Shown: positions 3,408 through 29,757, counted from the first letter of the stretch. The stretch is DNA of 32,000 bases from Clostridia bacterium (GCA_034926675.1 JAYFQW010000081.1:1-32000), one strand, 5' to 3'. Made by a program: numbers and translations. The notes: generated by a model not told the origin, from the letters alone.

Positions 3408-3493
3408 ACACACCATGGCTTCCGTGGCCTTCGGCCTGGAAGTCACGCATACCCCTGCCTGCCTCGGGGAAGAATTCGCCCCGAGGTGGTTTC

Positions 3494-4111: not shown

Positions 4112-4123
4112 CTGAGGAATAAT

Positions 4124-4165
4124 CCCTCCCTGTACGAATACCTATCTAGCAAACGACAGGGAGGG
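4124..4165 (+). promoter_or_regulatory. Perfect 10-bp inverted repeat (CCCTCCCTGT-N22-ACAGGGAGGG); the right arm overlaps the spoIIID Shine-Dalgarno region
   Basis: Arms at 4124-4133 and 4156-4165 are exact reverse complements. GGGAGGGAGG at 4159-4168 is the only SD-like element before ATG 4180. No U-tract follows. Confidence 0.4.
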
Positions 4166-4179
4166 AGGCCGGACGACAC

Positions 4180-4437: not shown

Positions 4438-4550
4438 TGTATGATGGAAGGTGAAACCGGACTGAGGCCGAATTCTACCGAAATCCAGAGGATGACCCGC
4501 AGTGACTGGTTCAAGCTGGTCATTCCCCTGGCACACCCGGGGGTAGCGGA

Positions 4551-5561: not shown

Positions 5562-5592
5562 TTGGTCTAGTCAACAGGCATCGAGAGGAGCG

Positions 5593-13407: not shown

Positions 13408-14241
13408 ATGAGTACTAGTAGGATGATCTCCGCGATGTTCACCGCCATCTTCGCATTGATGCTGCTCCAGGGGAATGGGGAAGTGTCAGCGTGCGTCGGA
13501 GCGCGTCCGATGGCCCTGGGAGGGGCATTTGTGGCCATGGCGGAGGGCTCATCCGCAGTGTACTGGAACCCCGCGGGCCTTGCCTGGCTTAAGTCGGGGG
13601 ATGCAGGGCTTACTGCCACCCTCAACAACAAGTGCACCTACAACTACGACCTCTTCGTTTCTCTCTGCTCACCTCTGGCTCAGGGGTGGGGTGTGGGCTT
13701 GGGCTATGTCCTCTCCACAGTCGCTGCCGGCGCCGGTGTTCTCCGAGAGGATTGGGCAGTAGCGTCGGCTGCCCGGGCCATCGACGATCAACTCGCCATC
13801 GGCGGCAGCGTGAGAATGGAGGCAGTGTCCTTTGAGCCGGAGTCCCCATCCACGAGGCTGAGGTTCGATATCGGCGTCATGTACCGGCTTACTCCGAAGC
13901 TCAGCGCCGGGCTGCTCATCCAGGATCTATCAGCAGGTTCGTCGGCCGCCAATATCAGACCGGGCCTCGCTATCAGGCCAGATGACCGTAGCCTTCTTAC
14001 CATTGATGTTTACGATATGGTCGGGGCATGGGGGCGCCCGAGCGGAAGGGCCGGATTCGAGAGACTGGTAGGGGATAATCTCGCTCTGCGCCTGGGGTGC
14101 TACGGGTTCAGCCCAGGATTCTCCTGGGGCGCACTGACCCTCGGCGCCGGCCTGACAGCCGGGCCATTTCGTGCTGATTACGCATTCCTCGGCGGAGCCC
14201 TGGGCGGCACTCACCAGTTGGGGGTGGAAGTTGCGTTCTAG
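13408..14241 (+). CDS. Small outer-membrane beta-barrel protein with a FadL/PorV-type N-terminal motif
   Basis: Signal peptide: MISAMFTAIFALMLLQGNGEVSA|C. The motif GARPMALGGAFVAMAEGSSAVYWNPAGLA resembles the G-x-A...NPA(G/A)L hatch motif of FadL/TodX/PorV-like barrels. Amphipathic strands alternate throughout, and the C-terminal beta-signal ends in Phe (HQLGVEVAF). SD GGGGGTGG precedes the ATG. Confidence 0.6.
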   Translation: MSTSRMISAMFTAIFALMLLQGNGEVSACVGARPMALGGAFVAMAEGSSAVYWNPAGLAWLKSGDAGLTATLNNKCTYNYDLFVSLCSPLAQGWGVGLGYVLSTVAAGAGVLREDWAVASAARAIDDQLAIGGSVRMEAVSFEPESPSTRLRFDIGVMYRLTPKLSAGLLIQDLSAGSSAANIRPGLAIRPDDRSLLTIDVYDMVGAWGRPSGRAGFERLVGDNLALRLGCYGFSPGFSWGALTLGAGLTAGPFRADYAFLGGALGGTHQLGVEVAF

Positions 14242-14256: not shown

Positions 14257-17200
14257 ATGAGGATTCTCGACCGTTACGTCATCCGCGAGTTTGTAGGGCC
14301 GTTCATCCTGTCTGTTTCGGCGTTCATAATCATCATGCTAAGCGGCCAGCTCTTCTGGCTGATGGATCTGATCATCCAGACACACGTCCCTGCGCTCGCG
14401 GTGATGCGCATGCTCTTATACAGTCTGCCTGGGATAGTCGCTCAGGTCCTGCCAGTTGCTGTGCTCCTGGCGGTCATGTTGGGCCTGGGTCGCCTCAGCC
14501 GCGATTCGGAGCTCTCGATCATGCGCGCCATCGGAACCCCTTTCGCGAGGATTGTGCTGCCGCTGATTGCCGTTGGCGCTGTTGTGAGTGGAATCGGCTT
14601 CTGGCTAGGGGATTCCGTAGTGCCATGGGCGACTCATGAATCGGAGAACATCGTTAGGCAGATGATCCTGAAGGACGTCATGCCCAATGTGGAACAGGAC
14701 GTCTTTTTCAAGGCGCCGGAGGGCAGGTTCGTCTATGTTGGCAAGGCTGATCCCGCGAGCGGGCTCATGGAACGTGTGATGGTGTATGAAACCAACTCCG
14801 GCGAATTCCCTCGGATAGTGACAGCCATGTCAGGTCGCATATCCGGGCTTTCCTGGCTGCTTACTGACGGCGCCATCCACCAACTGGATTCACGAGGGCG
14901 CGTCAGCATGTCAATGTCCTTCGAGAGCTTGGATATCAAGATGGACAACACGTTCGACCAGTTTGTTGCGAACCAGAAGACTCCTCAGGAGATGAGCAGG
15001 CGAGAGCTTAAGCAGAACATCGACCTGTTCGAACGGAGTGGCATCAAAGTCTCCGGGCTGCGGATCGATTACCACCTGAAATCGGCAGAGCCCGTGGCGG
15101 CCTTGGTGTTCGCTATTATCGGGGCGCCGCTCATTACCAAATCTCCTCGGCGAGGCGGCGGCTACTTCGGAGTGGTGGCAGCGGCTGTGCTGGCGCTTGC
15201 GTACTATGTGGTGCAGGCCATCGCCAGATCGCTGGCATCCCAAGGGACGGTCCCTCCACTTCTGGCCGCATGGTTCCCTAACATCCTGTTCCTGGCAGCA
15301 GGCCTCGCCATGCTATTTTCAGTTGATAAGGTGCGCGGCTTCCGTGCGCGGCGGCGCATTCCGATGGCTGCTATCCTCCTCGGTGCGCTGCTTCTTGTCG
15401 CCATTGCGCCTTCGGCTGCGAGGGCGGCGGATTTCCCAATCGACGTGCGCGGGACCTTGCTGTCGTTCGATGGCGCCACAGGGATCTGGGTAATCTCGGG
15501 GCAAGTGAAGATATCATTCAAAGACACGAAGATAACCGGGGATAGCGCGGAGTTCGATCTAAAGGACAACATTGCGGTGATACGCGGCAACGTTGTGGTA
15601 ATCCGGAACGATGAGGAACTCCGAGGCGATACTGTGACCTACAACGTCTCCACCGGGGACGTAATTGCAGGCAACGCGTGGGCAAAGATCCGCGATGAGA
15701 AGGTCACCGGTTTCCTTTACATGAAAGGCGCGGAGTTGGAGAGGAAGGACAGCTACGTTCGCCTCTCTGACGGCGCCGTAACCACGTGTGATCTTGACAA
15801 CCCCCACTATAAGGTGGTCGCCGAGAGAATGGAGATCTACGTAGACAGCAGAATCGTCCTACATGGAGTGGCCTATTACGAAGGGAAGGTCAAACTCCTG
15901 TCGCTTCCCCACCTTACTATTCCGCTCAAAGAGGATGAGAGGTTCGAGCTTCCGAAAATCGGGTACGGAGCTGCGGAAGGCTGGTACATCAAGACCAAGT
16001 TCAACTACAGGATCAATGATGATGCCACGGGGTCTCTGTATGCCGACTACTATCAGCTGCTAGGGCCTGCGGCTGGCGTCAGTCAGAGGATCAACCTTGG
16101 CAAGATAGGCGAGTTCACAGGGTATCTCTACGGGCTCTGGAACATCAACTCGGACCGGCTCGACACCACAGTCGAGCTGACCCACGCCGTGTCGCTCCCA
16201 TTCGATGTATCCTCGAAGGCGGAGCTGAAATTCAGGGATTTCACAACGTCAGCCGGGTTGCCTGCCCTGGAGAGGACCTATGGACTCAGTTTGCACAGGC
16301 AAGCATCTGGGTCGGCAACTGCGTTGACCTGGAACACCACCCAGCTCGAGTCGGTATCGGATACCTCAAACACTACTCTGATCCTCAAGCACAGCTCCAC
16401 GTTGCCGCAGCCGCTCTCTGTCAGGCTCAACGCCGACGCTTCATTCAGGCGCCAGACTGCGGGGGATTCTGTGGTGCGCAATGTGCTCAACTACAGAGTG
16501 CAGGCGGATAGGGCATTCGGGCCGATTACCGTGACGGGCCTGGCCCAATCCCAAGTTGTGATCGACGATGACTCAAGCCAGGATGGCTCGAACGCGCCAC
16601 CGCCTCCGTGGAAGGCGCTACAGAGGCTTCCCGAAATCACGGTGAAGGCGGATCGGCTGGAGATTCCAAATACTCCGCTGAGAATGGGCGTAAAGATGGT
16701 CTATGGGCGGTACACTGAGGACGCGATAAGAAATGGAGTCAGATCGGATATTACGGCTGGAAAAGGAGAGGCCGAGCTAACTCTCGGAATGGACTCGCGC
16801 AAGCTCACTCAGGGCCTCAGCGTGGATGCGACTGCCAGAGGAGTGTTCAGCCTCTATGAGGGGTACGGAGCACGAGGAGCTGCAGGCTACACCATCGGCG
16901 CCTACGTTGCCCCGGTGCAAGGATCTACACTGAGGATAACGTACAACAAGACCGATGTGATCGGAGCGTCTCCGTTCATGTTCGATCGAATGGCGGAGAC
17001 GAGCAGGCTTGCTGCGAATCTTACCGCCGTGAAGGGTCCGCTCAGGCTCACCCTCTCCAGCGGTTACGACTTTCGGACCCACACCTACGATAGCCTCACA
17101 GCCGCTGCCAGGGTGGATCTGGGTGGTGGGATAGCGGCGGACCTGTCGGGGTCGTACAGCATCTCCACGGGGAAGCCCACATCTCTTGTTGGAAGGGTAG

Positions 17201-17535
17201 TGGTGCAGCCCAATCCGGATCTGGATTTCAAGGCCGCTGCGAGCTACAGTTTCATCACGGGGAAGCTTGCAAGGGTGGAATCCTCTGCGAACATGAAACT
17301 CAGCTCCGACTACCGGCTTGCTTGGGCAGCGGTGTATGATGTGGCCAAGGGCGGCCTGATCAGGGGAGATATCGGAGTGACCCGCGATCTGCACTGCAGG
17401 GAGATTTCGCTGCTGTACGAATACACATCCCGCAGAGTGTGGTTGGACTTCCGGATCAAGGCATTTCCAGGGCAATCCCTAGGTTTCGGGCTAGGAGAGG
17501 ATGGCGTGATCCTGAGCCAGCCCAGCCTGTTCTGA
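14257..17535 (+). CDS. lptG-lptD: Single ORF encoding a complete LptF/LptG-family LPS export permease (aa 1-~358) followed in frame by a complete LptD/OstA outer-membrane LPS translocon (aa ~359-1092)
   Basis: N-terminal part: MRILDRYVIREFVGPFILSVSAFIIIMLSGQLF, six TM segments with a periplasmic insert, ending AAWFPNILFLAAGLAMLFSVDK. Then a signal-peptide-like segment: VRGFRARRRIPMAAILLGALLLVAIAPSAARA|ADF. Then an OstA N-domain (KITGDSAEFDLKDNIAVIRGNVVVIRNDEELRGDTVTY), the LptD signature region (AVTTCDLDNPHYKVVAERMEIYVDSRIVLHGVAYYEGKVKLLSLPHLTIPL), and a large barrel ending SQPSLF. There is no in-frame stop between the two parts. Confidence 0.85.
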   Translation: MRILDRYVIREFVGPFILSVSAFIIIMLSGQLFWLMDLIIQTHVPALAVMRMLLYSLPGIVAQVLPVAVLLAVMLGLGRLSRDSELSIMRAIGTPFARIVLPLIAVGAVVSGIGFWLGDSVVPWATHESENIVRQMILKDVMPNVEQDVFFKAPEGRFVYVGKADPASGLMERVMVYETNSGEFPRIVTAMSGRISGLSWLLTDGAIHQLDSRGRVSMSMSFESLDIKMDNTFDQFVANQKTPQEMSRRELKQNIDLFERSGIKVSGLRIDYHLKSAEPVAALVFAIIGAPLITKSPRRGGGYFGVVAAAVLALAYYVVQAIARSLASQGTVPPLLAAWFPNILFLAAGLAMLFSVDKVRGFRARRRIPMAAILLGALLLVAIAPSAARAADFPIDVRGTLLSFDGATGIWVISGQVKISFKDTKITGDSAEFDLKDNIAVIRGNVVVIRNDEELRGDTVTYNVSTGDVIAGNAWAKIRDEKVTGFLYMKGAELERKDSYVRLSDGAVTTCDLDNPHYKVVAERMEIYVDSRIVLHGVAYYEGKVKLLSLPHLTIPLKEDERFELPKIGYGAAEGWYIKTKFNYRINDDATGSLYADYYQLLGPAAGVSQRINLGKIGEFTGYLYGLWNINSDRLDTTVELTHAVSLPFDVSSKAELKFRDFTTSAGLPALERTYGLSLHRQASGSATALTWNTTQLESVSDTSNTTLILKHSSTLPQPLSVRLNADASFRRQTAGDSVVRNVLNYRVQADRAFGPITVTGLAQSQVVIDDDSSQDGSNAPPPPWKALQRLPEITVKADRLEIPNTPLRMGVKMVYGRYTEDAIRNGVRSDITAGKGEAELTLGMDSRKLTQGLSVDATARGVFSLYEGYGARGAAGYTIGAYVAPVQGSTLRITYNKTDVIGASPFMFDRMAETSRLAANLTAVKGPLRLTLSSGYDFRTHTYDSLTAAARVDLGGGIAADLSGSYSISTGKPTSLVGRVVVQPNPDLDFKAAASYSFITGKLARVESSANMKLSSDYRLAWAAVYDVAKGGLIRGDIGVTRDLHCREISLLYEYTSRRVWLDFRIKAFPGQSLGFGLGEDGVILSQPSLF

Positions 17536-17559: not shown

Positions 17560-18237
17560 GTGAGCTTGAAGCTGGCCCGAACTGCAGCAGTCCTGGCGGC
17601 GGTCGCCATTGCCTGCGTGTATGTGTATGCGTTCGTGGTTCACAGGCCTTCACCCGCTCGTGATGGGCCAGATGTGAGCCAAGGCTTGATACGACCTGAC
17701 CTGGTCTTCAAGGGTGTTCAGGTTGAGGGCAGAGAGGCCGGCGAGCGGATCTGGACCTTGTCGGCAGCCAGGGTGGAGGCAGGTGCGCGGGGATCTCAGA
17801 CCAGGCTTGACGAAATCACTGAGGGCGAGCTATATCGGACGGGCGAGGCCCATTACGCTTTCAGTGCGGGCCGGGGTGTTCTGGACTCCTCTACTGGGAT
17901 GCTGAGCCTCATGGGTGGAGTCAAGGTGGGCAGCGGCGGACGCGACCTGCTTGAGGCTGATGAGGTGAGATGGGACCCTGCTAGATCCATGGTGATAGTG
18001 CCCGGCCCGGCGAGACTTCACACAGCCAATGGCGAGGCCGCCGCCTCCTCCCTTGAGATTGATGTCAGGTCCTCCGAGATACTCACACAGGGCGAGGTGC
18101 ATGTCGACGAGGGGAACTCGGGGCCGGGATCGGGAGTGACCATCAAGAGCGCCAAAATGCGTATCAACCCGGACACCGGGTCGGTAGAGGCAGAGGGCGC
18201 GACGGAGATCACATTCCGGGTGAGTTCTGATGAGTAG
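17560..18237 (+). CDS. lptC: LptC-like membrane-anchored LPS export protein
   Basis: GTG start after GGAGAAGGAGG. Single N-terminal TM: LARTAAVLAAVAIACVYVYAFVV. This is followed by ~180 aa of beta-jellyroll-like sequence with the A...G..v.l.g.V pattern of LptC/OstA folds. It lies between lptD and lptA. The call rests largely on context and architecture. Confidence 0.6.
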   Translation: MSLKLARTAAVLAAVAIACVYVYAFVVHRPSPARDGPDVSQGLIRPDLVFKGVQVEGREAGERIWTLSAARVEAGARGSQTRLDEITEGELYRTGEAHYAFSAGRGVLDSSTGMLSLMGGVKVGSGGRDLLEADEVRWDPARSMVIVPGPARLHTANGEAAASSLEIDVRSSEILTQGEVHVDEGNSGPGSGVTIKSAKMRINPDTGSVEAEGATEITFRVSSDE

Positions 18238-18265
18238 AACTGGGATGAGAGGAGAGGCGAGCGAG

Positions 18266-18943
18266 ATGGCATGGCGCAGACTCGGGGGATTTCTGATGAT
18301 GGCGCTGCTCTGTGTGGTGGCGTCACTTCCCGCTGCTGCAGCTAACAAGGATGTCATAGTGCGGCTGGGGGACAGTGGGAGAACGACCTACCAGGGGGCA
18401 AATGGAGACACTGTGCTGGAGGGCGGTGTAAAGATCGAGTACGGCGACACTGTGATCACCGCCCAGCGAGCAGTTGTTAACATGGGAGCAGGTAAGGCGC
18501 ATCTCACAGGCGGCGTTACGCTGGTGCAGGGCGATGTCACACTCGGCTCCGACGCCATGGATGCTGACCTTAAGAAAGAGACCGCTGTGCTGACTGGAAA
18601 CGTGAAGCTTCAGAAGAAGGAGCAGCAGGCCGAGAAGGACTCATCCGGGAAGGCCAAGGTGTCGACGATCGTGATGACCTGTGCGTATCTGGACATCTCC
18701 ACTATCACTCAGGATTTCACTGCCACCGGGCCCGTGAGCATAACCGTGGATAAGCAGAAGGCGCAGTCTGCGAAGGCGACCTATTCCAACGCCCAGAAGG
18801 TCCTCGTGTTGACTGGTTCTGTGTTTATTCAGGGTGGAGACGGCGAGACCATCAAGTGTGATAAAGCCAGCCTACACACTGACAAAGAGGCAATTGAGGC
18901 CGAAGGCAAGGGAATGGAGATCACATTCGTGATCAAGGACTAG
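18266..18943 (+). CDS. lptA: LptA (periplasmic OstA-like LPS transport protein)
   Basis: Signal peptide: MAWRRLGGFLMMALLCVVASLPAAAA. OstA_N-type repeats: VLEGGVKIEYGDTVITAQRAVVNMGAGKAHLTGGVTLVQGDVTLGSDAMDADLKKETAVLTGNVKL and AQSAKATYSNAQKVLVLTGSVFIQGGDGETIKCDKASLHTDKEAIEAEG. The track ORF begins at 18230; I prefer ATG 18266 with GAGAGGAGAGG upstream. Confidence 0.75.
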   Translation: MAWRRLGGFLMMALLCVVASLPAAAANKDVIVRLGDSGRTTYQGANGDTVLEGGVKIEYGDTVITAQRAVVNMGAGKAHLTGGVTLVQGDVTLGSDAMDADLKKETAVLTGNVKLQKKEQQAEKDSSGKAKVSTIVMTCAYLDISTITQDFTATGPVSITVDKQKAQSAKATYSNAQKVLVLTGSVFIQGGDGETIKCDKASLHTDKEAIEAEGKGMEITFVIKD

Positions 18944-19002: not shown

Positions 19003-19011
19003 TGCTATAAT
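19003..19011 (+). promoter_or_regulatory. Possible extended -10 promoter element TGCTATAAT
   Basis: Exact TGnTATAAT match in the 90-nt AT-richer spacer after lptA, ~26 nt upstream of ATG 19037 (SD AGGGGG at 19023-19028). No convincing -35. Confidence 0.35.
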
Positions 19012-19036
19012 CTCCGTGAATAGGGGGTTTAGCTGC

Positions 19037-21253
19037 ATGTTCGCCCTTTTGCGCGATGGGTTCGTCCGAGACGTGATCGCCGCAGTCCTTGTGACGATCA
19101 TTGTCGGGTCCGGCGCAGTGCTTGCTGTATCGAACGGCGCAGACCGGTTCTTCGGCCGCGCAGTCTCGGGCGTCCTCGGCGAAGATGGGGAGTACGACAT
19201 GGTTGTCCATGTAAGGGCCGAGGTCCGGCGTGAGGCTGCCCGCGCAATTGAATCTGACATCCCCCGGGAACTGCCGGGAGCGCGGGTGAAAGAGGGTGTG
19301 ACAGTCCTGTCGCGCTCGAATTTTCTTGTGGCGCTGCCGGAAAAGAATGCCGAATCATTTGATCGGCTCGTCCGCGTCGCAGCGGAAATCCCGGGATACG
19401 TTGGGTACACAGTAGTGATGGAGCCGAAGATCACAGTGAGCGGAGTGGGGCCTGGGGTGGCTCCCTTGATCACTCCTGAGCTTGAGAAGATCGATGGGGT
19501 CCTGTTCACTGTGCAAGCAGGCGGCGAGATCCATCTTGTGTGCGATTCGCCCGAGTCGGCTCAGTCGGCTGGCCGGACAGCGGAGGCGCTCCTCAGCAGG
19601 CGACAAGTGGTCGACATCAGAATGGCCCCGGGGAGCGAGGCGCTCCTCCCGGGCAGTCCAGCCCGGAGTGGACTTCTGGATGGGATCAGGCGCGGCGCGT
19701 CCAGTGGCGCGTCCAGTGGAACACATCACGGACTGTCAGATGCGGAGGTGCACGACGTCACGCCCGATGCAGCCATAGACGACTCGTCCAGATTAGCATC
19801 TACTCTTCAGAAGATGCGGGGGTTCCTGGAAACGTGGGGCCCAAAGGCAACTGAGTTCTCATCATCTCTTGACGAGGCAGAACAACTGCTTTCTGACTTC
19901 CACAGGGCGGTGCAGGGTGCACTGGTTGCAGCCGAGAGCTCTGAGAAGGCGCTGGCCGAGTATGAGAAGGCCCTGGATTCCCTGATCAGCCTGCAGCGTG
20001 CACTTGAAAGGATCGGTGTCGGCGAGCCCAGTCCGCTCCGGATCGACCCGGAGGCCATTGATTCACTTGTGGAACTGACCGACAAGGCCATTGCGGAGAT
20101 CGCGAGGCTACGCGAGACTGCGGAGGCAGTATCCCTGTTCACCACGAGGTACGATCCTCTGATGGGCAACCTGAAGCTGTGGGAGGGCAGGCTCGATTCC
20201 TTCGCGCGGAAGCTCGAGTTGATCCGCTCTGCGGCAAATGGCGCCGGAGGAGTGGCGGCCGTCCTGAACGACATGTCGACGGCTGCATCTGGGATTCTCA
20301 GGACATTGCAGGAGCTTGATGCAACGGGCCTTCGGCATAAGGTGGAGGCGGCGCGAGAAGACCTCTCTGTGGCCTCTGCGGTGGACGTAGAATCGATAGC
20401 CGCGAAGGTGAGAGAGATGAGAGACTCCATCCCAAAGCTATCTCCCGATGAAGCTGATGGCTCGATTCAGCTCATAGATAAGCTAGTGGAGGAGCAGCGG
20501 GAATTTGTTGGCAGGCTTCAGATTCTTGTGATCTCGGACGTCTCATCGAAGGAATTGACCAAGCTCTCCCGGCTTGCGGCGGGCCCATCGGCGGCAGCAT
20601 CCTATGCGTTGCCAGCAGGGGTAGTTCAGCCGGGAGTGAGATCCGAAGTCCGAACGCTCCTAGGCTCAGTGAGGAGCACAGTGGCTGGAATGACAGCTCT
20701 GGGAATCACCATTATGTCCCTGGTGTTCGACCACGCGGCGATCATATCCACGGCTGCGCACATGGGAGACCGACGGCGCGGGAGGCCGGCGCCGGGAGTG
20801 GCGGGCTGTCTGTACGGCGCCACGATCGGCGGCGTGACCCTGTGGGCCATCTCATTCATCGCCGGCGCTTCCGTAGCATCCCTGGGGCGACCTGCTCTTG
20901 CCGTTGTCGGAATGGCGACCGGTGCGACGGTGGCGATGATGGCGATGCGCGTATCCCCGGTGAACGCGGACGAGATCGAGGCCTGCGCAGCACTGGGCAT
21001 GAACCCCTCCGCGATTCTGCGCGAGGTAATCCTCCCAGCAGGCAAGCCGGGCGTTATCTCCCTTCTGAACAGGTCGCAGCTGGTATTCGCAGGATCCTTC
21101 CCCGACGGATTTGTGCAGAGTATAGGCGGCGTGGACGATGAGGGAGCAGTGGATCAAACTGGATGGGAGGTGGACACTGATGCTCAGCATGCGCCGACTG
21201 ACGCGCTCCTTCGGCCATCGGATAGCGCTCGCAAGCTTCAGCATGGATGTTGA
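19037..21253 (+). CDS. Uncharacterised polytopic membrane protein: N-terminal TM, two small alpha/beta domains, ~250-aa coiled-coil/helical region, C-terminal 3-TM module with an EAA-like loop; putative permease partner of the downstream ABC ATPase
   Basis: TM1: VIAAVLVTIIVGSGAVLAV. FtsX-ECD-like blocks: YDMVVHVRAEVRREAARAIESDIPRELPGARV and EIHLVCDSPESAQSAGRTAEALLS. Helical region ~19778-20540: EKALAEYEKALDSLISLQRALERI...LELIRSAANG...IQLIDKLVEEQREFVGRLQ. TM segments: TVAGMTALGITIMSLVF, VAGCLYGATIGGVTLWAISFIAG, ALAVVGMATGATVAMMAM. Then ADEIEACAALGMNPSAILREVILPAGKPGVISLL resembles the EAA-x3-G-x9-I-x-LP loop of type I ABC importer permeases. I recognise no family for the whole protein. Confidence 0.5.
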   Translation: MFALLRDGFVRDVIAAVLVTIIVGSGAVLAVSNGADRFFGRAVSGVLGEDGEYDMVVHVRAEVRREAARAIESDIPRELPGARVKEGVTVLSRSNFLVALPEKNAESFDRLVRVAAEIPGYVGYTVVMEPKITVSGVGPGVAPLITPELEKIDGVLFTVQAGGEIHLVCDSPESAQSAGRTAEALLSRRQVVDIRMAPGSEALLPGSPARSGLLDGIRRGASSGASSGTHHGLSDAEVHDVTPDAAIDDSSRLASTLQKMRGFLETWGPKATEFSSSLDEAEQLLSDFHRAVQGALVAAESSEKALAEYEKALDSLISLQRALERIGVGEPSPLRIDPEAIDSLVELTDKAIAEIARLRETAEAVSLFTTRYDPLMGNLKLWEGRLDSFARKLELIRSAANGAGGVAAVLNDMSTAASGILRTLQELDATGLRHKVEAAREDLSVASAVDVESIAAKVREMRDSIPKLSPDEADGSIQLIDKLVEEQREFVGRLQILVISDVSSKELTKLSRLAAGPSAAASYALPAGVVQPGVRSEVRTLLGSVRSTVAGMTALGITIMSLVFDHAAIISTAAHMGDRRRGRPAPGVAGCLYGATIGGVTLWAISFIAGASVASLGRPALAVVGMATGATVAMMAMRVSPVNADEIEACAALGMNPSAILREVILPAGKPGVISLLNRSQLVFAGSFPDGFVQSIGGVDDEGAVDQTGWEVDTDAQHAPTDALLRPSDSARKLQHGC

Positions 21254-21920
21254 AGAAGGTCAGACAGCTGTGATCATGGGGCCATCAGGCTGTGGGAAAT
21301 CCACGGTTCTCAGGAGCATCATCGCGCTTTCACGACCGGACTCAGGCGAGATACTGTGGCAGGGCAATTCGGTGCTGGATATGTCAGAGTCGGAACTCCG
21401 CCAGTTCCGGAGAAAGACCGGGTTCGTGTTTCAGCGGTCCAACCTCATAGGCAGGCTGAATGTGCTTCAGAACGTGATGCTTCCCGCCGTGATGGCTGGG
21501 ACCGGCATAGATGTGGCCCAATCATGGGCGATCGCGGCTCTGGAAGGAGTGGGTATGGAAGACCGCTCGTCAGCAAAGGTGACCGAGCTGTCAGGCGGAG
21601 AAATGCAGCGGGTGGCCATAGCCCGCGCGATTTCAGGCCGACCCAGATTGGTGCTGTGGGATGAACCCACTGCCTCTCTTGATCCCATCCTGGTAGTTGA
21701 CACGCTGAAGCTTATCGAGGGGCTGATAGATCGCCTGGAGGTGACCATGGTGGTAGTTACGCACGAAGTCAGCTTCGCTCGCCGAGTTGCCGACAGGGTC
21801 ATCTTGATGGAGCACGGCGCCGTAGTGGAGGAGGGTCCGCCCGACAAGGTTCTGGTGTCGCCCGAATCCCGACTTGGTGCGAGGTACGCTGGCTGCCTAT
21901 CTTACCTCGAGGGGCAATAG
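21180..21920 (+). CDS. ABC transporter ATP-binding protein (HisP/GlnQ-like subfamily)
   Basis: Walker A GPSGCGKST, Q-loop FVFQRSNL, signature LSGGEMQRVAIARA, Walker B LVLWDEPTASLDP, H-loop VVVTHEVSFARRVADRVILMEHGAVVEEGPPDKV. I prefer ATG 21180 (GGGAGGTGG 7 nt upstream) over the track start 21138. Either start overlaps the 3' end of the upstream ORF. Confidence 0.9.
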   Translation: MLSMRRLTRSFGHRIALASFSMDVEEGQTAVIMGPSGCGKSTVLRSIIALSRPDSGEILWQGNSVLDMSESELRQFRRKTGFVFQRSNLIGRLNVLQNVMLPAVMAGTGIDVAQSWAIAALEGVGMEDRSSAKVTELSGGEMQRVAIARAISGRPRLVLWDEPTASLDPILVVDTLKLIEGLIDRLEVTMVVVTHEVSFARRVADRVILMEHGAVVEEGPPDKVLVSPESRLGARYAGCLSYLEGQ

Positions 21921-21980: not shown

Positions 21981-23255
21981 GTGGATATGATCTTGGTGGC
22001 AGGCGGACCCGGAGATACGCTGGGACTCGCCAGGCCTGCAGTGGAGATGGTGCGTAGAGCCTATCCTGCGGCTGATGTGTGGGTTTTCGTTGCGCCCGTC
22101 TCACGCGCCACCGGGCGAGAGGCACGGGTCGCATCGTCGTTTCCGGGGGTGAGGCGTGCTGTGCCGCCTTCGGAGTTCGTGAGATATCTCGCCACTGGAA
22201 TCCGGCCACCGGGTTTCGCGGCATCTGGGTCAGGAGTCGTAGTTCACCTCGGAGGCGGCATGACTTGGGCCGCCTGCCTGAGCAGGCGACTTCACTATCC
22301 GTTGGTTACATATTGCTCAAAGGCGATCCCTCCAGCTAGATCCGTAGCTCTGTATCTAGTTGAGGATGAACGGGCACAGGCCTCTCTCATCGCGAGTGGG
22401 GCTCCTGCTGAAAAGGTGCGGCCCGTTGGCAACCTCACTGCAGACAGCGCGGCGTTGAGTGTAAGCCGGAATGAGGCCAGAGCCCGGTTGGGAATTGGCG
22501 AGGACGATCGCCTCGTCGGGCTATATCCTGGGCTTCGGCCATCAGAGGTTTCCGCTATGGCGCCCTTCCTCTTCAGGACTGCAGAGCTCCTCTCCAGGGT
22601 TGAGCGGGGTGTGAAGTTCATCATGCCCCTCTCCCCTTTCGTGGGCACATCATCTCTGGAGCGGCTTTTTGCCATTCCGCGGGGCAAATCCAGGCCTGAG
22701 AGATCCTCTGCAGTGGTAGAGAAGAATGCTGGCCCCATTGAGGCCGTAACATCAGAGGGAATCAGGGTGCGCATCGAGACATCCGCGCGGCAGGAAACCA
22801 CAATTGCCTCGGATCTGGCCATCTGCACACCAGGTCCCATCTGCACTGAACTCGCAGCCAACGGTGTCGCCTATGTCGCGGTTATCCCCTCCAATCTTCC
22901 TCACGCTATGACACTCGGTGGGCTTGGGGGCCTTCTGTCGTCAGTCCCTCTCATCGGCGACGCCATTAGGAGCAGCGCGTACAAGCATGCCGCTGCTTCG
23001 TCGAAGTTCTTCACCATTCCGAACATCAAGGCCGGACGCATGGTGACTCCGGAGGTGGCCGGGGAGATAGGGCCCGAAGACGTAGCGATACCCTCTGTTG
23101 GGCTTCTCGGCGATCCTGCGCGTCGCGACAAGATCGGCCGCGAGCTGAGGGAGGCCGTGGGCGGCCCTGGCGCCTCTGGCAGATTCGCCAATCAGATTCA
23201 TCTCATCACTGGTCCGAGCTCACCGGCCAGTCTAGCTGGCCCAGGCCAGGGCTAG
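21981..23255 (+). CDS. lpxB: Lipid-A-disaccharide synthase LpxB (GT19), divergent
   Basis: By-eye alignment to E. coli LpxB. [11 protein letters not shown] matches [35 protein letters not shown] matches [53 protein letters not shown] matches [41 protein letters not shown] matches the C-terminal region. The PGSR motif is changed to PGLR. Confidence 0.65.
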   Translation: [424 protein letters not shown]

Positions 23256-23484
23256 GCCGCATATATCCAACCCCATCCCGCTTACAAGACTCATCCCAGG
23301 AAACCCCGGGCATGTTCCAGGCCTGCTTGTGCAGGTGAGACCTGTTCATCTGTCGAAAGAGATCATAACATGGCCGGATTGCGCGCTCCACGAGGGAACC
23401 AAACTGCACCTATTAGCGTCATTACATGGGGCGAATGGCGATATCTGCACGGAGCAGGTCACAGCCGGTGGGAGTGTTCGGCAT

Positions 23485-24204
23485 TTGGGCATTCGCGGTG
23501 ATCAGCTGGTCAAGGCGTATGGCCGTCGCCGGGTCGTCGACGGCGCCAGTATAGCGCTTGAGCGCGGTGAGGTCGTCGGCCTCCTCGGACCGAACGGCGC
23601 TGGCAAGACCACTACCTTCTACATGATAGTCGGCCTTGAGTCGCCTGATTCCGGTTCTGTTGCAATCGATGGGGTAGATGTGACCGACTGCCCTGTCTGG
23701 AGGCGAGCGAGGCTCGGATTGGGCTATCTCGCGCAGGAACCGTCGGTGTTTCGCGGGCTCTCGGTGGAGAGCAATCTTCGAGCAGTTCTCCAGTTGGCGG
23801 GGGTTGCTCGAACTCAGGAAAGCGCAGATTTGGAGCGCCTGCTCTCCAACTTCGATCTGGCGAGGATACGGCGGCAGACTGGCTTGACCCTCTCGGGCGG
23901 AGAGAGAAGACGGGTGGAGATCGCGCGGGCGCTGGCCGCGTCTCCGTCATACATCCTTCTCGATGAGCCATTCACTGGCATTGATCCGATAGCAGTCGGA
24001 GAAATCCAGGAGATTGTAGGTAGGCTCAAACGCGCGGGCTTGGGTGTGCTGATCACCGACCACAACGTCCGCGACACGCTGGCCATAGTGGATCGTGCTT
24101 ACATAATGCACGAGGGCCGGATACTTGTTTCGGGATCTGCACGCGAAATCCTCAACGATCCGACTGCGAGACGGCTCTATCTGGGCGAACGGTTCACGCT
24201 TTAG
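23485..24204 (+). CDS. lptB: LPS export ABC transporter ATP-binding protein LptB
   Basis: Near-canonical LptB: LVKAYGRRRVVDGASIALERGEVVGLLGPNGAGKTTTFYMIVGL, LGLGYLAQEPSVFRGLSVESNL, LSGGERRRVEIARALAASPSYILLDEPFTGIDPIAVGEIQEIV, GVLITDHNVRDTLAIVDRAYIMHEGRILVSGSAREILNDPTARRLYLGERFTL. TTG 23485 gives 239 aa, close to the ~241 aa I recall for E. coli LptB. The track ORF start 23329 adds a non-homologous extension. Confidence 0.92.
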   Translation: MGIRGDQLVKAYGRRRVVDGASIALERGEVVGLLGPNGAGKTTTFYMIVGLESPDSGSVAIDGVDVTDCPVWRRARLGLGYLAQEPSVFRGLSVESNLRAVLQLAGVARTQESADLERLLSNFDLARIRRQTGLTLSGGERRRVEIARALAASPSYILLDEPFTGIDPIAVGEIQEIVGRLKRAGLGVLITDHNVRDTLAIVDRAYIMHEGRILVSGSAREILNDPTARRLYLGERFTL

Positions 24205-24232: not shown

Positions 24233-25555
24233 GTGCCCGGTATGGCGCTGATACTGGTTCTGGCTGTCACTGGCGGAGTCATCGCGTACGCTGGAGACCG
24301 TATTGGAATGAAGGTTGGGCGCAAGAGGCTCTCGATCTTCGGGCTCAGGCCTAAGTACACCTCCATTATAGTCGCAGTGATCACTGGTGTGGTCATTACA
24401 GCATGCACGCTGTTCGTACTCACTCTCGCATCTGAGAATGTCCGCACTGCTCTTTTCCGGATCAAGGAGATTCAGGACGCTCTCTCCACTGCCCATTCAG
24501 ATCTGGAGACGAAGCGTGCTGAGGCCGACGCCCTCTCAACCAGAGTCAAGGAGATTGCCGATGAGTACAACAACCTAGAGAGCCAGTTCGACGTGGTCAA
24601 CTCGGAGCTTTCCGAAGCGGTTGCAGAGAAGGCGAAGGCGCGTAAGGAACTCTCAGGAGTACAGGCGAAACTCACGGAATCTGAAGGCCGACTCGAAGAT
24701 GTGAAAGCCAGATTCGCACAGGCATCGGCTGGCCTCGGCAAGGCGAACGCCGATCTTCGCCAGGCTCGAGGGGATGTCGCTGGGCTTGAGGCAGAGAAAT
24801 CCGACCTGGAGCGAGATGTGGCGGCGCTATCCTCGGAGCAGGCGCGCCTGCAGGCAGAGGTCAGTGATCTCGACATGAATGTCCGCGCTCTCATCGAGCT
24901 TAATGCCAGGCTCCTCGAAACCAAGGAGACAGCGCTCATGGGACAGGTCATTTTCCGCGCCGATCAGGTGATTCTCGGAGCGACGATTGACTGCTCGCAG
25001 CGTCGCGACGCCATTGAGAACCAGTTCAACGGGTTCCTGCTGAAGGTGAACGAGATCGCAGTGAGGCGAGGCGCTAGTAGCGATGACCCGGGTGGGGATC
25101 CATTCGTGCTTAAGTTTGACGAGGCAAATGTGGTTGCCGCCCTCCAGAAGATTGCGCAATCCGATTCCAAAGTGATTCTCCGGGCAATGTCCCCCGTGAA
25201 CTCATGGTACGAAGCGCCGTTGCTTGTGTCCCTGCATGTGCTTCCCGATGCCAAGATCTACTCCGCTGAGGAGGTGATCGCATCGAAGATTATCGACGGG
25301 TCTATCGGGTCGAGCCGAATACAAGAGGACATGCTCGAGTTGGTGCAGGCTGTGAACAGTGCGTGCATAGCAGAGGGAATGGCAAGTGACGAGGAAGGCA
25401 AGATCGGTACGGTGATCACGATTTCGGAGTTCACATCGGCCATCATGAACATGGTCCAGCGTAACTCCAAGCAATTGGTGGAGGCCGTTGCAGTGCGCGA
25501 TATCTGGCGCAGCCAGATGTCGCCATCGATCAAGCTCGTCGTCAAGCCCATGTGA
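24233..25555 (+). CDS. DUF3084-like membrane protein: two N-terminal TM helices, ~150-aa coiled coil, C-terminal globular domain
   Basis: GTG 24233 follows GGGAGGG and lies 28 nt after the lptB stop. N-terminus LILVLAVTGGVIAYAGDRIGMKVGRKRLSIFGLRPKYTSIIVAVITGVVITA matches my recollection of the DUF3084 signature (GD.lG.kvGKkRlslfgLRPr.Ta). Heptad-rich region: HSDLETKRAEADALSTRVKEIADEYNNLESQFDVVNSELSEAVAEKAKARKELSGVQAKLTESEGRLEDVKARF...LERDVAALSSEQARLQAEVSDLD. Confidence 0.7.
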   Translation: MPGMALILVLAVTGGVIAYAGDRIGMKVGRKRLSIFGLRPKYTSIIVAVITGVVITACTLFVLTLASENVRTALFRIKEIQDALSTAHSDLETKRAEADALSTRVKEIADEYNNLESQFDVVNSELSEAVAEKAKARKELSGVQAKLTESEGRLEDVKARFAQASAGLGKANADLRQARGDVAGLEAEKSDLERDVAALSSEQARLQAEVSDLDMNVRALIELNARLLETKETALMGQVIFRADQVILGATIDCSQRRDAIENQFNGFLLKVNEIAVRRGASSDDPGGDPFVLKFDEANVVAALQKIAQSDSKVILRAMSPVNSWYEAPLLVSLHVLPDAKIYSAEEVIASKIIDGSIGSSRIQEDMLELVQAVNSACIAEGMASDEEGKIGTVITISEFTSAIMNMVQRNSKQLVEAVAVRDIWRSQMSPSIKLVVKPM

Positions 25556-25857
25556 GCAATTGCGCCTCTAGCTTGGCCTGGTGAGGGCAAAAAACTCGCT
25601 CCCGGTGAAGGAGTTGAGTGCTGCCTTGGAGAATATCTGATAAGGATATGCTGTATCGACATTACCTGCGTTTCCGTGGTTTTCCGATTGAAGCTGGCTG
25701 AAAGGGGGCTCCCGAAACCAGTCGTCGCCAGCTGGACCTGTACGCAACGAGCCTCGCGCCGATCAACGTGCAAGCCTGAGGAAACATGACCACTCGGGCC
25801 AGCGCCAGATGGGGGCAGGCGTCTAGCGTTTACTATCACTAAGGGGGGAATCGCTTG

Positions 25858-28800
25858 ATGAAGAAGTTCCTAGCTGTCCTCCTCACGACCGTCCTGGTAG
25901 TCGCCTTGGCGGTGCCTGCGTTCGCAGGTCCCTACAAGGATTTGGCGGACAACCACTGGGCGGCTGACGCGGTGAGGATGCTTACTGCCCTCGGGGTGAT
26001 CACCGGCTACCCTGACGGGACCTTCAAGGGCACTCAGAGCGCTAACAGGTATGAGGTCGCCGCTATGGTGGCCCGGGCGCTCGAGTACCTCGACAAGGAC
26101 ATCGCCGCAAGAATGACCGAGCTTGAGGCGAGGCTCAGGAAAGACGCTCCAGCTGGATCCGGCCCCGTGGCGGTCGTGACTATCCCAACGAATCCGGAGA
26201 AGCAGGTGGTGCTGCAGCCATCGTCTCAGCCGGACTCCACGATTCTCGAGACTATTATCGCGGAGAAGATCGCTGGTATGACCGATGCGCAGTGGGCGGA
26301 GTTCGACAGCAGGTTGTCTGCGCTATACGCGCGGGTGAACGATCTGTCGGACGACAATCTAGCAGCCCATGCGGCGGTTCGCGCCGACATCGACTCGATC
26401 AAGGCAGCTCTGGCGATGCGCCAGGCTGATGGGACGATACCTGGGATCGAGGTCCACACTGTGTCAGTTTCCGATCCTGAGGTGAAAGCCGCTATTGAGC
26501 AGACTGCGGGTCAGCTCGGGGGAAGAATCGCTGTCCTAGAGGCGCAGATGCCCGGCATCTCCAAAGCCATGAACGACGCTGCCGCGAAGACCAGCACAGG
26601 CTGGGAAGATGCGGTCAAGAGGCTTGAGGAGAGAGTCGCCGCACTTGAGGCCCTCAATATGGATCCCAAGGCGTACGATGCCGCTATCAGCAAGGCCGCA
26701 GCCGAGGAAGTCGCCAAGGCCGTGGCCGAGGATAAGGCAGTTGTGGCGGCCCTTTCGGCTAACCTCGATAAGCTTGGCAAGGAGCACATTGCTGATCTTG
26801 CCGCTCGAGAGAAGGCCGTGGAGGACCTGCTCGCGGTACATACCCTCGCAGAGGAGCGCGCGCGCATAGACGCCCTGGCTGCTCTCAGCGCTGAGAATGA
26901 GACTGCCCTCGCTGAGCAGCAGGCTGCTATCACGATGACCTTCTATGATGCTCTCGCTGCTGAGCGAGACGAGCGCGAGAAGGCCATGGAGAAACTCCAG
27001 TCCGCGCAGGCAGGGAAACTGACTGCGGAGATTGACGGTCTCGCTAAGTCGTTCAGAGGTTCTCTCGATGTTGAGAAGAGCGAAAGGGACAAGGCCGTAG
27101 CTGAGCTGGCGGCCAAGTTCGAGCTTCAGCTGGCGGAGAGAACCAAGGCGACCCTCAGCGAGGTCTACGCGAGGCTCGCTGAACTCGCTCAGATGTGCGA
27201 CAAGTTCGACGCAGCCAAGGCCGACCAGGATGCGGCCATCGCAGAACTGGCCTCGAACGTGGAGATTGCCCTGTCTCAGCAGAATGCTGAGCTTGCGGTG
27301 ACGTTCTACGATGCGCTTGACGCGGCGAAGGAAGAGAACGCCGCAGCCCTTGCCAAACTCTCCGAAGAGCAAGACTTGGCCCTATCGGAGCAGAATGCGT
27401 CACTTATGGTGGCATTCTACGATGCGCTCTACGCTGAGAAGGATGAGCGGGAAAAGGCCATTGAGAGGCTGACTTCCGATTTCGACCTTGCTCTATCGGA
27501 GCAGAATGCGTCACTGATGCTGGCGTTCTACGATGCTCTCTACGCCGAGAAGGATGAGCGGGAAAAGGCCATTGAGAGGCTGACTTCCGATTTCGACCTT
27601 GCTCTCGGTGAGCAGAACGCGTATCTCATGTGCGAACTGTACGATGGCATCTGGGCTGCGAAGGAAGAGGTATACGCATCCATCGACAAGCTAGATGCGA
27701 AGATCCTCGGAGTCATGGCCGCTATCGATGCTCTGAAGAGTGAGTTCGGCCGTGAACTCGCTGCCCTCGGGGTCCGGGTGACCGCACTCGAGGATCAGCT
27801 TGCCGGGGCCAAGACCGAGATCGCGGTGCTTAGCGCGGCAGTTTCGGAGAACGAGAAGGCCATCGAAGAGGTCCGCGGGCAGGCGGCTGCGATAGACACC
27901 CGCCTCGTTGCGGAGGAACAGGCCTCAATCGGCATGAAGGCCGACATCGAGACCCTCAAGGCTCTCGCGGCACAGAATGCCAAGGACATTGCCGACATGT
28001 ACTACAAGGTCGAGTCCACGGTGTCAGCCATCGAAGCGAAAGACGCTGAGCAGGACGTGGAGATTGGCAAGCTCAAGCAGAAGGACCTTTCGCTAGACAC
28101 CCAGATAGCTAACATATGGACGGATCTGAATCGGGTGCGCTTCACTGGCGCCGATGAGGTGAAATTCCTCGACATCGACCTGAAGGGCGCGCCTGGCGCT
28201 GTGTTCTACAAGGATCCGTACGCTCCGTCGGCCGATCCGAACAAGCAGTATCAGCCCACATCGAAGCTTCAAAACGAGCTGAAGCTGGCGCTCAATATCA
28301 AGCCTGAGAAGGGCGTAGATGTGTCGGTTGGCATTACCGCTGTGACCGACGTATTCGGCGCTGCTCATCAGACGGTTGGGCTCTTCAATGGCGACCTGGA
28401 TCTCGCCATCACGACTCCGTCCTCGAAGACGAAGATCGTTGCGGGCGAGCTCGCGAGGCCAGCCAATTATACCAAGTATCAGATCGGAGCTGTCAAGTTC
28501 GCTGATGCCAAGATTGAGGGCATCGGAGCGAACACCACGCTCGGCGGCTTGAATGCCACTGCGACCATAGCGAAGATCGCCGATCCTGACCTGGCGGTCG
28601 GCGGCTATCAGCACCTGATGGGCGCTAGCGCGAGCTACCAGGCCACCGACATGCTGAAACTTGGTGCAAGGTGGTTCCGTATTGTTGACGACCCGCTGTC
28701 GGGCGACACGACACTCGATAAGCTGGAGGATGTGTACGGAGGAGACTTCACGCTGAGGCTTGGCGATGCATGGACTGCCGGCGGAGAGCTGTCTGTCTGG

Positions 28801-29757
28801 GCAAACAAGACCATGGCGACGCCGGCTGCCGCGTACAAACTGCAGACAGACGCCAAGTTCGGAATCCTGGCGATCAATGGCTCTGTTGAGCAGGTTGCTG
28901 CGGGATATGCTCCGAAGTACATGGAGACCGCTGATGATGAGGATGCAGACTACGTGAAGGCAGACACAAGTGTGGCGAGGCTCTCAGTCACCACCGACCC
29001 GATCAAGGGGGTCATCCTTTCGGCCGGCGCGGTCAAAGAGGGAGATGAGGGATACATCGCTGCGGATAAGACCACGTTGACTGCAGACGCCAAGTACGGG
29101 CTTAGGCTAGCTATCGCCGATGTCACTCTGAAGGGCGGAGTGAAGCAGGTGAACGTTGTGAAGCCGACGCCTGTCTCTATGGGTACAACCACCAGCCTGG
29201 GCTTCGATGCCACGATCAAACCAGCCAACTTCGGGTTCACATGGGAACACGATGTTGAGGCAAACGACAACGCCTACGTTGCATACGCCAACGCAGAGGT
29301 TCCAGTTGGCGGCGATGCGCTGGTCCTGAAGGGCTCATGGGAACAGGGATTCGGCTACAAGGACTACTACAAGTACAACGCTGGAGCCGACATGAAACTT
29401 GCTCTTGTGAAGGACGTTGCGACCTTCGGCGCAGGCGCCTCATACGGAAGAACCTATGGAACATCCGATGATGACAAGAACTACTCCAGAATGCAGGTTG
29501 GCGCCAATCTCGATTGGAAGCTAGCCAGTTCGACTACTCTGACTGGAAAGGCGTCGTACGAGTCTCGTGCCTACGACAACGGCGTGAAACCCTCAGGCGA
29601 CTACTTCCAGTACGGACTCGCTCTTGCTCAATCGCTCTACAAGTCCACAACCCTGAGCATCAAGTACGATGTCAAGGACGTCTACTATGTGCCAGCGACA
29701 GGGTATCGGGACTACGGCGCGAGGATAGTCGACCTGTCCTTGAAGACTGCATTCTAA
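25858..29757 (+). CDS. SLH-domain / long coiled-coil / C-terminal beta-barrel outer-membrane protein (OmpM/SlpA-like OM-peptidoglycan tether and porin)
   Basis: ATG 25858 follows AAGGGGGG. Signal peptide: MKKFLAVLLTTVLVVALAVPAFA|G. SLH domain: YKDLADNHWAADAVRMLTALGVITGYPDGTFKGTQSANRYEVAAMVARAL. About 650 aa are A/E/K/L-rich helical sequence with 37-aa repeats. From ~aa 760 there are alternating beta-strand patterns (VRFTGADEVKFLDIDL...), ending with a beta-signal (IVDLSLKTAF). Confidence 0.85.
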   Translation: MKKFLAVLLTTVLVVALAVPAFAGPYKDLADNHWAADAVRMLTALGVITGYPDGTFKGTQSANRYEVAAMVARALEYLDKDIAARMTELEARLRKDAPAGSGPVAVVTIPTNPEKQVVLQPSSQPDSTILETIIAEKIAGMTDAQWAEFDSRLSALYARVNDLSDDNLAAHAAVRADIDSIKAALAMRQADGTIPGIEVHTVSVSDPEVKAAIEQTAGQLGGRIAVLEAQMPGISKAMNDAAAKTSTGWEDAVKRLEERVAALEALNMDPKAYDAAISKAAAEEVAKAVAEDKAVVAALSANLDKLGKEHIADLAAREKAVEDLLAVHTLAEERARIDALAALSAENETALAEQQAAITMTFYDALAAERDEREKAMEKLQSAQAGKLTAEIDGLAKSFRGSLDVEKSERDKAVAELAAKFELQLAERTKATLSEVYARLAELAQMCDKFDAAKADQDAAIAELASNVEIALSQQNAELAVTFYDALDAAKEENAAALAKLSEEQDLALSEQNASLMVAFYDALYAEKDEREKAIERLTSDFDLALSEQNASLMLAFYDALYAEKDEREKAIERLTSDFDLALGEQNAYLMCELYDGIWAAKEEVYASIDKLDAKILGVMAAIDALKSEFGRELAALGVRVTALEDQLAGAKTEIAVLSAAVSENEKAIEEVRGQAAAIDTRLVAEEQASIGMKADIETLKALAAQNAKDIADMYYKVESTVSAIEAKDAEQDVEIGKLKQKDLSLDTQIANIWTDLNRVRFTGADEVKFLDIDLKGAPGAVFYKDPYAPSADPNKQYQPTSKLQNELKLALNIKPEKGVDVSVGITAVTDVFGAAHQTVGLFNGDLDLAITTPSSKTKIVAGELARPANYTKYQIGAVKFADAKIEGIGANTTLGGLNATATIAKIADPDLAVGGYQHLMGASASYQATDMLKLGARWFRIVDDPLSGDTTLDKLEDVYGGDFTLRLGDAWTAGGELSVWANKTMATPAAAYKLQTDAKFGILAINGSVEQVAAGYAPKYMETADDEDADYVKADTSVARLSVTTDPIKGVILSAGAVKEGDEGYIAADKTTLTADAKYGLRLAIADVTLKGGVKQVNVVKPTPVSMGTTTSLGFDATIKPANFGFTWEHDVEANDNAYVAYANAEVPVGGDALVLKGSWEQGFGYKDYYKYNAGADMKLALVKDVATFGAGASYGRTYGTSDDDKNYSRMQVGANLDWKLASSTTLTGKASYESRAYDNGVKPSGDYFQYGLALAQSLYKSTTLSIKYDVKDVYYVPATGYRDYGARIVDLSLKTAF
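27268..27711 (+). repeat. Four tandem 111-nt (37-codon) in-frame repeats inside the SLH protein coiled coil; the middle two are nearly identical
   Basis: Units start at 27268, 27379, 27490 and 27601. Units 2 and 3 (ALSEQNASLM[V/L]AFYDALYAEKDEREKAIERLTSDFDL) differ at about 6 of 111 nt by eye, and their last ~55 nt are identical. The flanking units are diverged (ALSQQNAELAVTFYDALDAAKEENAAALAKLSEEQDL; ALGEQNAYLMCELYDGIWAAKEEVYASIDKLDAKIL). A more distant copy lies near 26900 (ALAEQQAAITMTFYDALAAERDEREKAMEKL). Confidence 0.9.

Follow-up and report, generated by a model that had tools for sequence, protein, structure and literature searches.

An undescribed ABC gene pair with importer-type kinship and a large ectodomain in the outer-membrane gene cluster of diderm Firmicutes

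In the outer-membrane (OM) gene cluster of a Clostridia bacterium (GCA_034926675.1, JAYFQW010000081.1:1-32000; this stretch of 32,000 nucleotides is called the window here), two genes for a membrane protein, termed X, and an ATP-binding cassette (ABC) ATPase are located between lptA and lptB. The pair is real, conserved, and undescribed, and the architecture of the membrane domain of X matches no described ABC transporter. This architecture without precedent and the position in a cluster for OM and lipopolysaccharide (LPS) assembly make the pair a good candidate for a missing OM assembly factor. It is an open question how diderm Firmicutes and Terrabacteria build their OM without the lipoprotein-dependent accessories of the Proteobacteria. 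The OM gene cluster has been analysed repeatedly, yet the pair has been passed over, although in three classes its place is between genes for lipid A and Lpt. The eLife 2016 analysis of the cluster named three conserved unknowns as priority targets (COG0816, DUF3084/COG4372, and COG0750), and the pair is neither among these nor in the supplement (PMC5007114). Subsequent studies of Mla, OmpM, and BamA from diderm Firmicutes likewise do not mention it.

The open reading frame (ORF) of X extends from 19016 to 21253 and would encode 745 residues if read from a GTG codon. Based on the GGGGG sequence 11 nt upstream, translation likely starts at ATG 19037, which also agrees with the N-termini of the homologues. 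The resulting protein of 738 residues is identical to a protein at NCBI from a metagenome-assembled genome (MAG), which is named merely 'ABC transporter permease'. An earlier reading of the window made without database searches (the sequence-only reading) had given the same length but had placed the start slightly too far upstream, at 19003. Hydropathy analysis reveals four hydrophobic segments (residues ~7-35, 545-573, 591-617, and 619-640) but no others, neither in the stretch from residue 36 to 540 nor after residue 640. The extracytoplasmic region therefore comprises ~505 residues, and the topology of one transmembrane segment (TM1), a large ectodomain, and three C-terminal segments (TM2-TM4) is as had been proposed. 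The ectodomain is indeed large and placed between TM1 and TM2. Asp565 is invariant across the family and would be located, according to the structural model described below, in TM2 close to the cytoplasmic face. The TM2-TM3 loop is variable in the family and was modelled with low confidence.

When 85 diverse relatives are aligned, conservation is highest in the C-terminal EAA region, three columns of which (A649, G654, and P667) belong to the 15 best conserved. X terminates 71 residues past the EAA motif without a further TM, and all non-fused full-length members end within ~75 residues of the motif, most of them within 18-55 residues. The full set of core helices of a type I permease, at least five with two of them following the EAA motif, is present neither in X nor in its non-fused full-length relatives. 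Searching the whole protein against Pfam and NCBIfam gave nothing above threshold, and the source names retrieved for the family members are 'hypothetical protein' or the generic 'ABC transporter permease', so that the pair is rightly regarded as uncharacterised. The sole Pfam match of X is a sub-threshold one to BPD_transp_1, in which residues 623-684 are aligned to positions 52-114 of the 184 profile positions, with a score of 19.6-21.8 bits compared to the cutoff of 26.4. Fourteen of 31 relatives scanned singly match the same domain while none matches FtsX. MacB_PCD is matched neither by X nor by these 31 relatives, and a LptF_LptG or MlaE domain was not found in X by Pfam.

A profile of the full family compared to the PDB sequences was flooded by coiled-coil matches, and the last ~170 residues were then used as profile. 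With these, the only transporter matches among all PDB sequences (E <= 10) were MetI (E = 0.002), PotC, an ArtQ-type permease, and PotB, and the search found no chain of MacB, LolC/E, or FtsX. MacB, LolC, and FtsX are also missing from the 50 best Foldseek matches that were listed for each of two models of X. From these relationships X appears to derive from the permease of a type I (binding-protein-dependent) importer, whose first periplasmic loop would have gained an insertion of ~500 residues and which would have lost the two helices behind the EAA motif. The likeness to FtsX/MacB/LolCE, which the sequence-only reading had noted, accordingly does not hold as a kinship given the EAA motif, the type I permease matches, the missing FtsX/MacB matches, and the importer-type ATPase; it seems to be one of topology and not of descent.

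The ORF of the ATPase spans 21138-21920, and the most likely start codon is ATG 21180, which is preceded by a GGAGG sequence. The gene overlaps the 3' end of X, which encodes the non-conserved tail, by 74 nt. The protein belongs to PF00005 (E = 1.6e-35), and all its motifs are intact: the Walker A motif GPSGCGKST, the Q-loop FVFQ, the signature LSGGE, the Walker B motif LVLWDE including the catalytic glutamate, and the H-loop VTHE. The best family matches are GlnQ, PhnC, EhuA, TcyN, and ArtP, with 196 bits for GlnQ versus 161 for FtsE and 160 for LolD. The best matches among solved structures are DppD, ArtP, MetN, and HisP, the latter three ranking above FtsE and LolD. The ATPase is thus nearer to the importer ATPases than to FtsE, MlaF, and LolD, in agreement with the earlier assignment as a HisP/GlnQ-like ATPase.

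In each of the 52 loci long enough to show it, the ATPase gene comes directly after X. In 6 of 150 listed cluster representatives, all high-GC, the two are fused into single proteins of 932-996 residues. Two genomes of Negativicutes contain a second X-ATPase copy outside the OM cluster (loci L038 and L042), in which both genes have been kept together in unrelated surroundings, those of L042 being uninformative. No convincing terminator was found between the genes, the scans for terminators and promoters giving counts at chance level. The two genes most likely encode one self-contained ABC machine of the composition X2:ATPase2, in which X would form a homodimer.

It could be imagined that this machine is a genuine type I solute importer, with the ectodomain as a tethered substrate-binding module and with a pathway built from two times four helices, perhaps together with a partner. 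X shares with the type I importers (MetNI, Art(QN)2, HisQMP2, and PotABC) the motif EAA-x3-G-x9-I-x-LP and homologous preceding helices, as seen in the similarity to BPD_transp_1, MetI, and PotC, and the ATPase belongs to the same subfamily (the polar-amino-acid or PAAT type). Importers with fused binding domains do exist, GlnPQ and OpuA being examples. However, type I importers have two helices past the EAA motif that are missing throughout the X family, and they have neither the ~500-residue ectodomain in the first periplasmic loop nor the OM/LPS context. The ectodomain does not correspond to any family or fold of substrate-binding proteins, and no gene of a substrate-binding protein family was found among the ORFs of the window, in the annotated loci, or in the Sporomusa locus. 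In addition, the family is confined to diderm Firmicutes, where it is found inside the LPS/OM cluster. A solute importer is therefore quite unlikely.

The AlphaFold2 (AF2) model of X, which was built from 15 homologues (pLDDT, the predicted local distance difference test score, of 71.5), comprises in this order two alpha/beta domains, a helical region, a beta-alpha-beta-beta element, TM2-TM4, and two short helices with the C-terminal motif. Each of the N-terminal domains is modelled as beta-alpha-beta-beta-alpha-beta. In the alignment of the 85 relatives the N-terminal alpha/beta region has a constant length of 153-154 residues in nearly all members, and it contains the conserved motifs GEYD, HVR, and EPxxxVxG. 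The helical region shows heptad-like periodicity, 52% of the 28-residue windows being above the 95th percentile of shuffled sequences. The anatomy drawn by the sequence-only reading, two small alpha/beta domains and a helical or coiled-coil segment of ~250 residues, is therefore essentially right. The same cannot be said for the periplasm-spanning hairpin of 18 nm that had been derived from it and that is not established. The longest modelled helix has 81 residues, the helical region varies between 158 and 462 residues across the family, and in 67 of the 85 relatives it is interrupted by a beta-rich insert of 57-154 residues at a position corresponding to residue 274/275 of X (window 19859/19860). 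This insert, for which no Pfam match was found, is absent from X itself, where the 81-residue helix is uninterrupted, and from 17 other members, which are mostly short forms of ~600-640 residues.

Comparing the whole model with Foldseek gave MmpL5 as best match (9mvz_D, E = 2.4e-6) with a TM-score of 0.12. A weak match to Wzc (E = 0.024, probability 0.28) was also found, and most of the other listed matches are helical bundles. A separate model of residues 1-245 (pLDDT 65) is similar to tandem ACT/ferredoxin folds and weakly to SecDF; in this search it did not match the ectodomains of MacB, LolC, FtsX, or Wzz. Proteins of the MmpL4/5 type in the resistance-nodulation-division superfamily share ferredoxin-like periplasmic subdomains and a long helical extension with X, but they are proton-driven, have 12 TMs, and show no sequence relationship. 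Polysaccharide co-polymerases have a similar layout, with two TMs that enclose an alpha/beta base and a long helical segment. X might be an adaptor like these or like the membrane fusion proteins, fused to an ABC engine, whose ectodomain oligomerises (as in Wzz, Wzc, and KpsE) or docks to an OM channel (as in MacA and MmpL5) and which exports or sizes a polymer of the envelope, such as a glycan linked to LPS. The neighbouring LPS genes would fit to such a function. However, the TM-scores of 0.1-0.15 and root-mean-square deviations of >30 A indicate matches driven by the coiled coil, no Wzz or HlyD match was found with Pfam, the four-TM domain does not have an ABC-2-type export fold, and there would be at most two ectodomains per ABC dimer. 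An adaptor of this kind is improbable to the same degree as an importer.

Type VII systems (MacB, LolCDE/LolDF, and FtsEX) resemble the pair in having a TM1, a large ectodomain, and three further TMs, in the composition of one membrane and one ATPase gene, and in the envelope context. Their ectodomains, like that of X, contain alpha/beta elements (ferredoxin or Porter type) contributed by both ends of the loop. By analogy, X probably acts in a way similar to these mechanotransducers. On the other hand, X does not match FtsX (PF02687) or MacB_PCD in sequence or fold, and its ATPase is not of the LolD/FtsE/MacB subfamily. Type VII systems couple mainly via the TM2-TM3 helix, whereas X would couple by the C-terminal EAA loop. 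We propose that binding and hydrolysis of ATP would close the dimer of the GlnQ/ArtP-like ATPases and that this motion would pass via the C-terminal EAA helices to the four-TM bundles and on to the ectodomains. The two times four helices are probably unable to form a classical import pathway, and the ectodomains would instead do mechanical work in the periplasm, outside the cytoplasmic membrane. That X2:ATPase2 is such an ABC machine of eight helices, which has no classical translocation pathway, transmits mechanical motion to its ectodomains, and is convergent with MacB/LolCDE/FtsEX from an importer scaffold, could just as well turn out right as wrong. If true, the mechanotransmission known from MacB, LolCDE, and FtsEX would have evolved a second time, which would bear on the classification of ABC folds.

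The process served by this work is suggested by the gene neighbourhood. The genes of OM or LPS biogenesis flank the pair in 57 of 59 loci, which come from Limnochordia-like MAGs, Negativicutes, and Halanaerobiales, and its usual position is directly upstream of lpxC-fabZ-lpxA-lpxI-lpxB-msbA. In the Limnochordia the order is LptFG(D)-(LptC)-X-ATPase-LpxC-FabZ-LpxA-LpxI-LpxB-LpxB-like-MsbA. Among the Negativicutes, Sporomusa, Pelosinus, Dendrosporobacter, Propionispora, Anaerospora, and Massilibacillus share the order BamA-...-OmpH-LpxD-YjbH-like-LpxL-X-ATPase-LpxC-FabZ-LpxA-LpxI-LpxB-MsbA. Within the Halanaerobiales, Fuchsiella has BamA-LpxD-YjbH-like-X, and Orenia also contains a member of the X family. 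The close relatives of the window (46-50% identity) have kept its order, TamB-BamA-OmpH-LptFG~D-LptC-LptA-X-ATPase-LpxB-like-(MsbA)-LptB-DUF3084-SLH. The linkage to lpt, lpx, and bam genes is therefore conserved across three classes of diderm Firmicutes, and the combination that would have spoken for an unrelated transporter, a match to another family and missing linkage, was not found. The family itself is rare. When 1.84 billion cluster representatives were searched exhaustively with a profile, about 210 clusters were obtained, and the members with a source name belong exclusively to Bacillota or to unclassified 'bacterium' MAGs. A scan of genomes for X was done with two peptide patterns that match 9 of 85 representatives (~11%), and its failure to detect X in Veillonella, Selenomonas, and Halanaerobium does not allow inferring absence from these genera.

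Within the window the pair is part of a co-directional string on the plus strand: SpoIID, M23 peptidase, MreB, SpoIVB-like, TamB, BamA, OmpH, PorV-like, LptF/G~LptD-like, LptC, LptA, X, ATPase, LpxB-related, LptB, DUF3084, and the 1300-residue SLH protein. The sequence-only reading had correctly recognised lptA upstream and the canonical lptB (340.9 bits, cutoff 240) downstream of the pair. The gene it had called lpxB (21981-23255) has, however, a score of 37.9 bits for TIGR00215 versus a cutoff of 190. In one Limnochordia locus (L013; 17425-18630 and 18599-19882) this gene has an orthologue directly behind a canonical LpxB (328 bits), and the gene of the window must therefore be regarded as an LpxB-related paralogue. 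The lpxC-fabZ-lpxA-lpxI-lpxB block found downstream of the pair in the other lineages is absent from the window, and the lineage may hold its lipid A genes elsewhere or have lost them.

As the pair forms part of the lipid A/Lpt/Bam cluster in three classes, a function in OM or LPS assembly is our best guess from anatomy and synteny. The ectodomains could for example extract a glycolipid or another lipid of the envelope or pass it on, or their work could be coupled with the Lpt bridge. LptB2FGC from the same cluster is likewise an ABC engine with periplasmic domains and serves OM lipid assembly, but X has no LptF_LptG domain or beta-jellyroll, and the pair has its own ATPase, which is distinct from LptB. 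If the pair had such a function, a new energy-consuming step would be added to the pathway. A more far-reaching and clearly more doubtful proposal would be that the pair is an ancestral and overlooked component of OM biogenesis with a novel ABC architecture, in which a type I scaffold has been reduced to four helices plus its EAA loop and has become a periplasmic mechanotransducer that works together with the lipid A/Lpt pathway, e.g. by feeding or regulating LPS delivery. Such a component might also help in turning an inner-type into an outer membrane in sporulating diderms.

Several points weigh against these proposals. X is weakly similar to type I permeases, its scores remaining under the Pfam gathering score and at E = 2e-3 for MetI, and the similar part spans one to two helices and the EAA loop. 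The confidence of the AF2 model is moderate, with values <50 for the TM2-TM3 loop and the C-terminal tail, and the modelled folds of the ectodomain, ferredoxin-like and helical, appear generic and do not indicate a ligand. The lpxC-lpxI genes are not adjacent to the pair in the lineage of the window, the two paralogous copies are found outside the OM cluster, and the synteny with lipid A genes may reflect merely a general clustering of envelope genes.

Two other functions were also considered. Firstly, the pair could be a Lol-like extractor that takes lipoproteins out of the inner membrane and passes them on towards the OM. This is suggested by the MacB/LolCE-like topology and by the absence of LolA and LolB from Negativicutes (PMC5007114). 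According to a 2024 review, however, diderm Terrabacteria have neither OM lipoproteins nor Lol (PMC11784454), which weakens a role in lipoprotein extraction. Moreover, the family is present in Halanaerobiales (Fuchsiella and Orenia), an order with its own predicted Lol system (PMC5007114), X has no similarity to LolC/E or MacB_PCD, and the ATPase resembles GlnQ/ArtP more than LolD. The replacement of a missing Lol pathway, which the sequence-only reading had considered, is thus highly improbable.

Secondly, the pair could be a regulator like FtsEX. ATP would then move the ectodomain or coiled coil, and this motion would switch on a periplasmic peptidoglycan hydrolase or some other enzyme of the envelope, perhaps at the time of engulfment or when the spore membranes are remodelled. 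The topology of four TMs with a helical ectodomain would fit, the window contains SpoIID, M23 peptidase, and SpoIVB-like genes 12-17 kb upstream, and all named genera carrying the family are, as we take them to be, spore-formers. However, the link to spore-formers is a putative one, the genome scan detecting ~11% of the members, X has no FtsX domain, and an adjoining hydrolase gene is not conserved, the neighbours in Negativicutes and Limnochordia being lipid A enzymes. Such a regulator is unlikely, and we prefer the function in OM or LPS assembly. The coordinates of the features are listed in Table 1.

Table 1. Features of the X-ATPase pair and of the adjoining genes in the window
Feature	Coordinates	Strand	Basis and remarks
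LptC	17560-18237	+	Pfam/NCBIfam; upstream
LptA	18230-18943	+	Pfam/NCBIfam; upstream
Membrane subunit X, 738 residues: TM1, ~505-residue extracytoplasmic region, TM2-4, C-terminal EAA motif, non-conserved tail	19037..21253	+	ORF, hydropathy, AF2 model
TM1, residues ~9-35	19061..19141	+	Hydropathy peak 2.69; modelled helix 9-47
Two tandem ferredoxin-like alpha/beta domains, residues 55-196	19199..19624	+	Modelled secondary structure, Foldseek
Helical, heptad-periodic region, 247 residues, residues 246-492	19772..20512	+	AF2 model, periodicity test
Membrane-proximal beta-alpha-beta-beta element, residues 493-532	20513..20632	+	AF2 model
TM2-TM4, residues 534-640	20636..20956	+	AF2 model, alignment, hydropathy
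EAA motif EACAALGMNPSAILREVILP, residues 648-667, pattern EAA-x3-G-x9-I-x-LP	20978..21037	+	Translation, family alignment
ABC ATPase, 246 residues	21180..21920	+	Pfam, NCBIfam, PDB comparison, translation
LpxB-related glycosyltransferase paralogue	21981..23255	+	TIGR00215 score, L013 orthologue; downstream
Canonical LptB	23329..24204	+	TIGR04406, 340.9 bits, cutoff 240; downstream

Several other genes of the window and of the related loci deserve mention. A single ORF of 1092 residues (14257-17535, plus strand) encodes a full LptF/LptG permease (residues 6-353) joined to an LptD-like region with LptD_N (425-544) and DUF3769 (879-942), the junction running through the signal-peptide-like segment RRRIPMAAILLGALLLVAIAPSAARAADFP. 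It is the only LptF/G-type gene in the window, and the same fused ORF was called in four relatives (1042-1104 residues). The product could be a trans-envelope fusion, a protein that is internally cleaved, or the result of an internal restart. Between OmpH and this ORF a small OM protein similar to the PorV/PorQ family (13408-14241, plus strand) is encoded, whose match (E = 3e-14) stays below the cutoff and which is present in three relatives but not in all. The ORF of LptB carries an N-terminal extension of 56 residues that is not homologous to LptB, the homology setting in at residue 57, so that translation probably starts further downstream.

A small YjbH-like protein (an N-terminal fragment of PF06082; 8108-8740 in locus L049 and its equivalents in other loci) is conserved between lpxD and lpxL or X in Negativicutes and Halanaerobiales. 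It is also found near LptFG in some of the Limnochordia-like loci and represents a further component of the cluster that is unstudied.

Immediately upstream of the OM cluster, the plus strand encodes SpoIID, an overlapping M23 peptidase, MreB/Mbl, and a protein with a fragment of the SpoIVB S55 peptidase (2382-7491), and from these sporulation-type genes the host is probably a sporulating diderm Firmicute. A Secretin_N protein is encoded on the minus strand (686-1513).

Directly after lptB, at a position kept in all close relatives, a DUF3084 protein is encoded (24233-25555, plus strand) that has an N-terminal membrane segment and a long coiled coil; DUF3084 belongs to COG4372 and is one of the conserved unknowns pointed out before for diderm Firmicutes (PMC5007114). 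It is followed by an OmpM-like protein of 1300 residues (25855-29757, plus strand) with an N-terminal SLH domain and a very long coiled coil, which is far longer than classical OmpM. By analogy to OmpM a porin-like barrel is assumed at its C-terminus. The protein contains near-identical internal repeats, in which EKDEREKAIERLTSDFDLALSEQNASLM is found twice.

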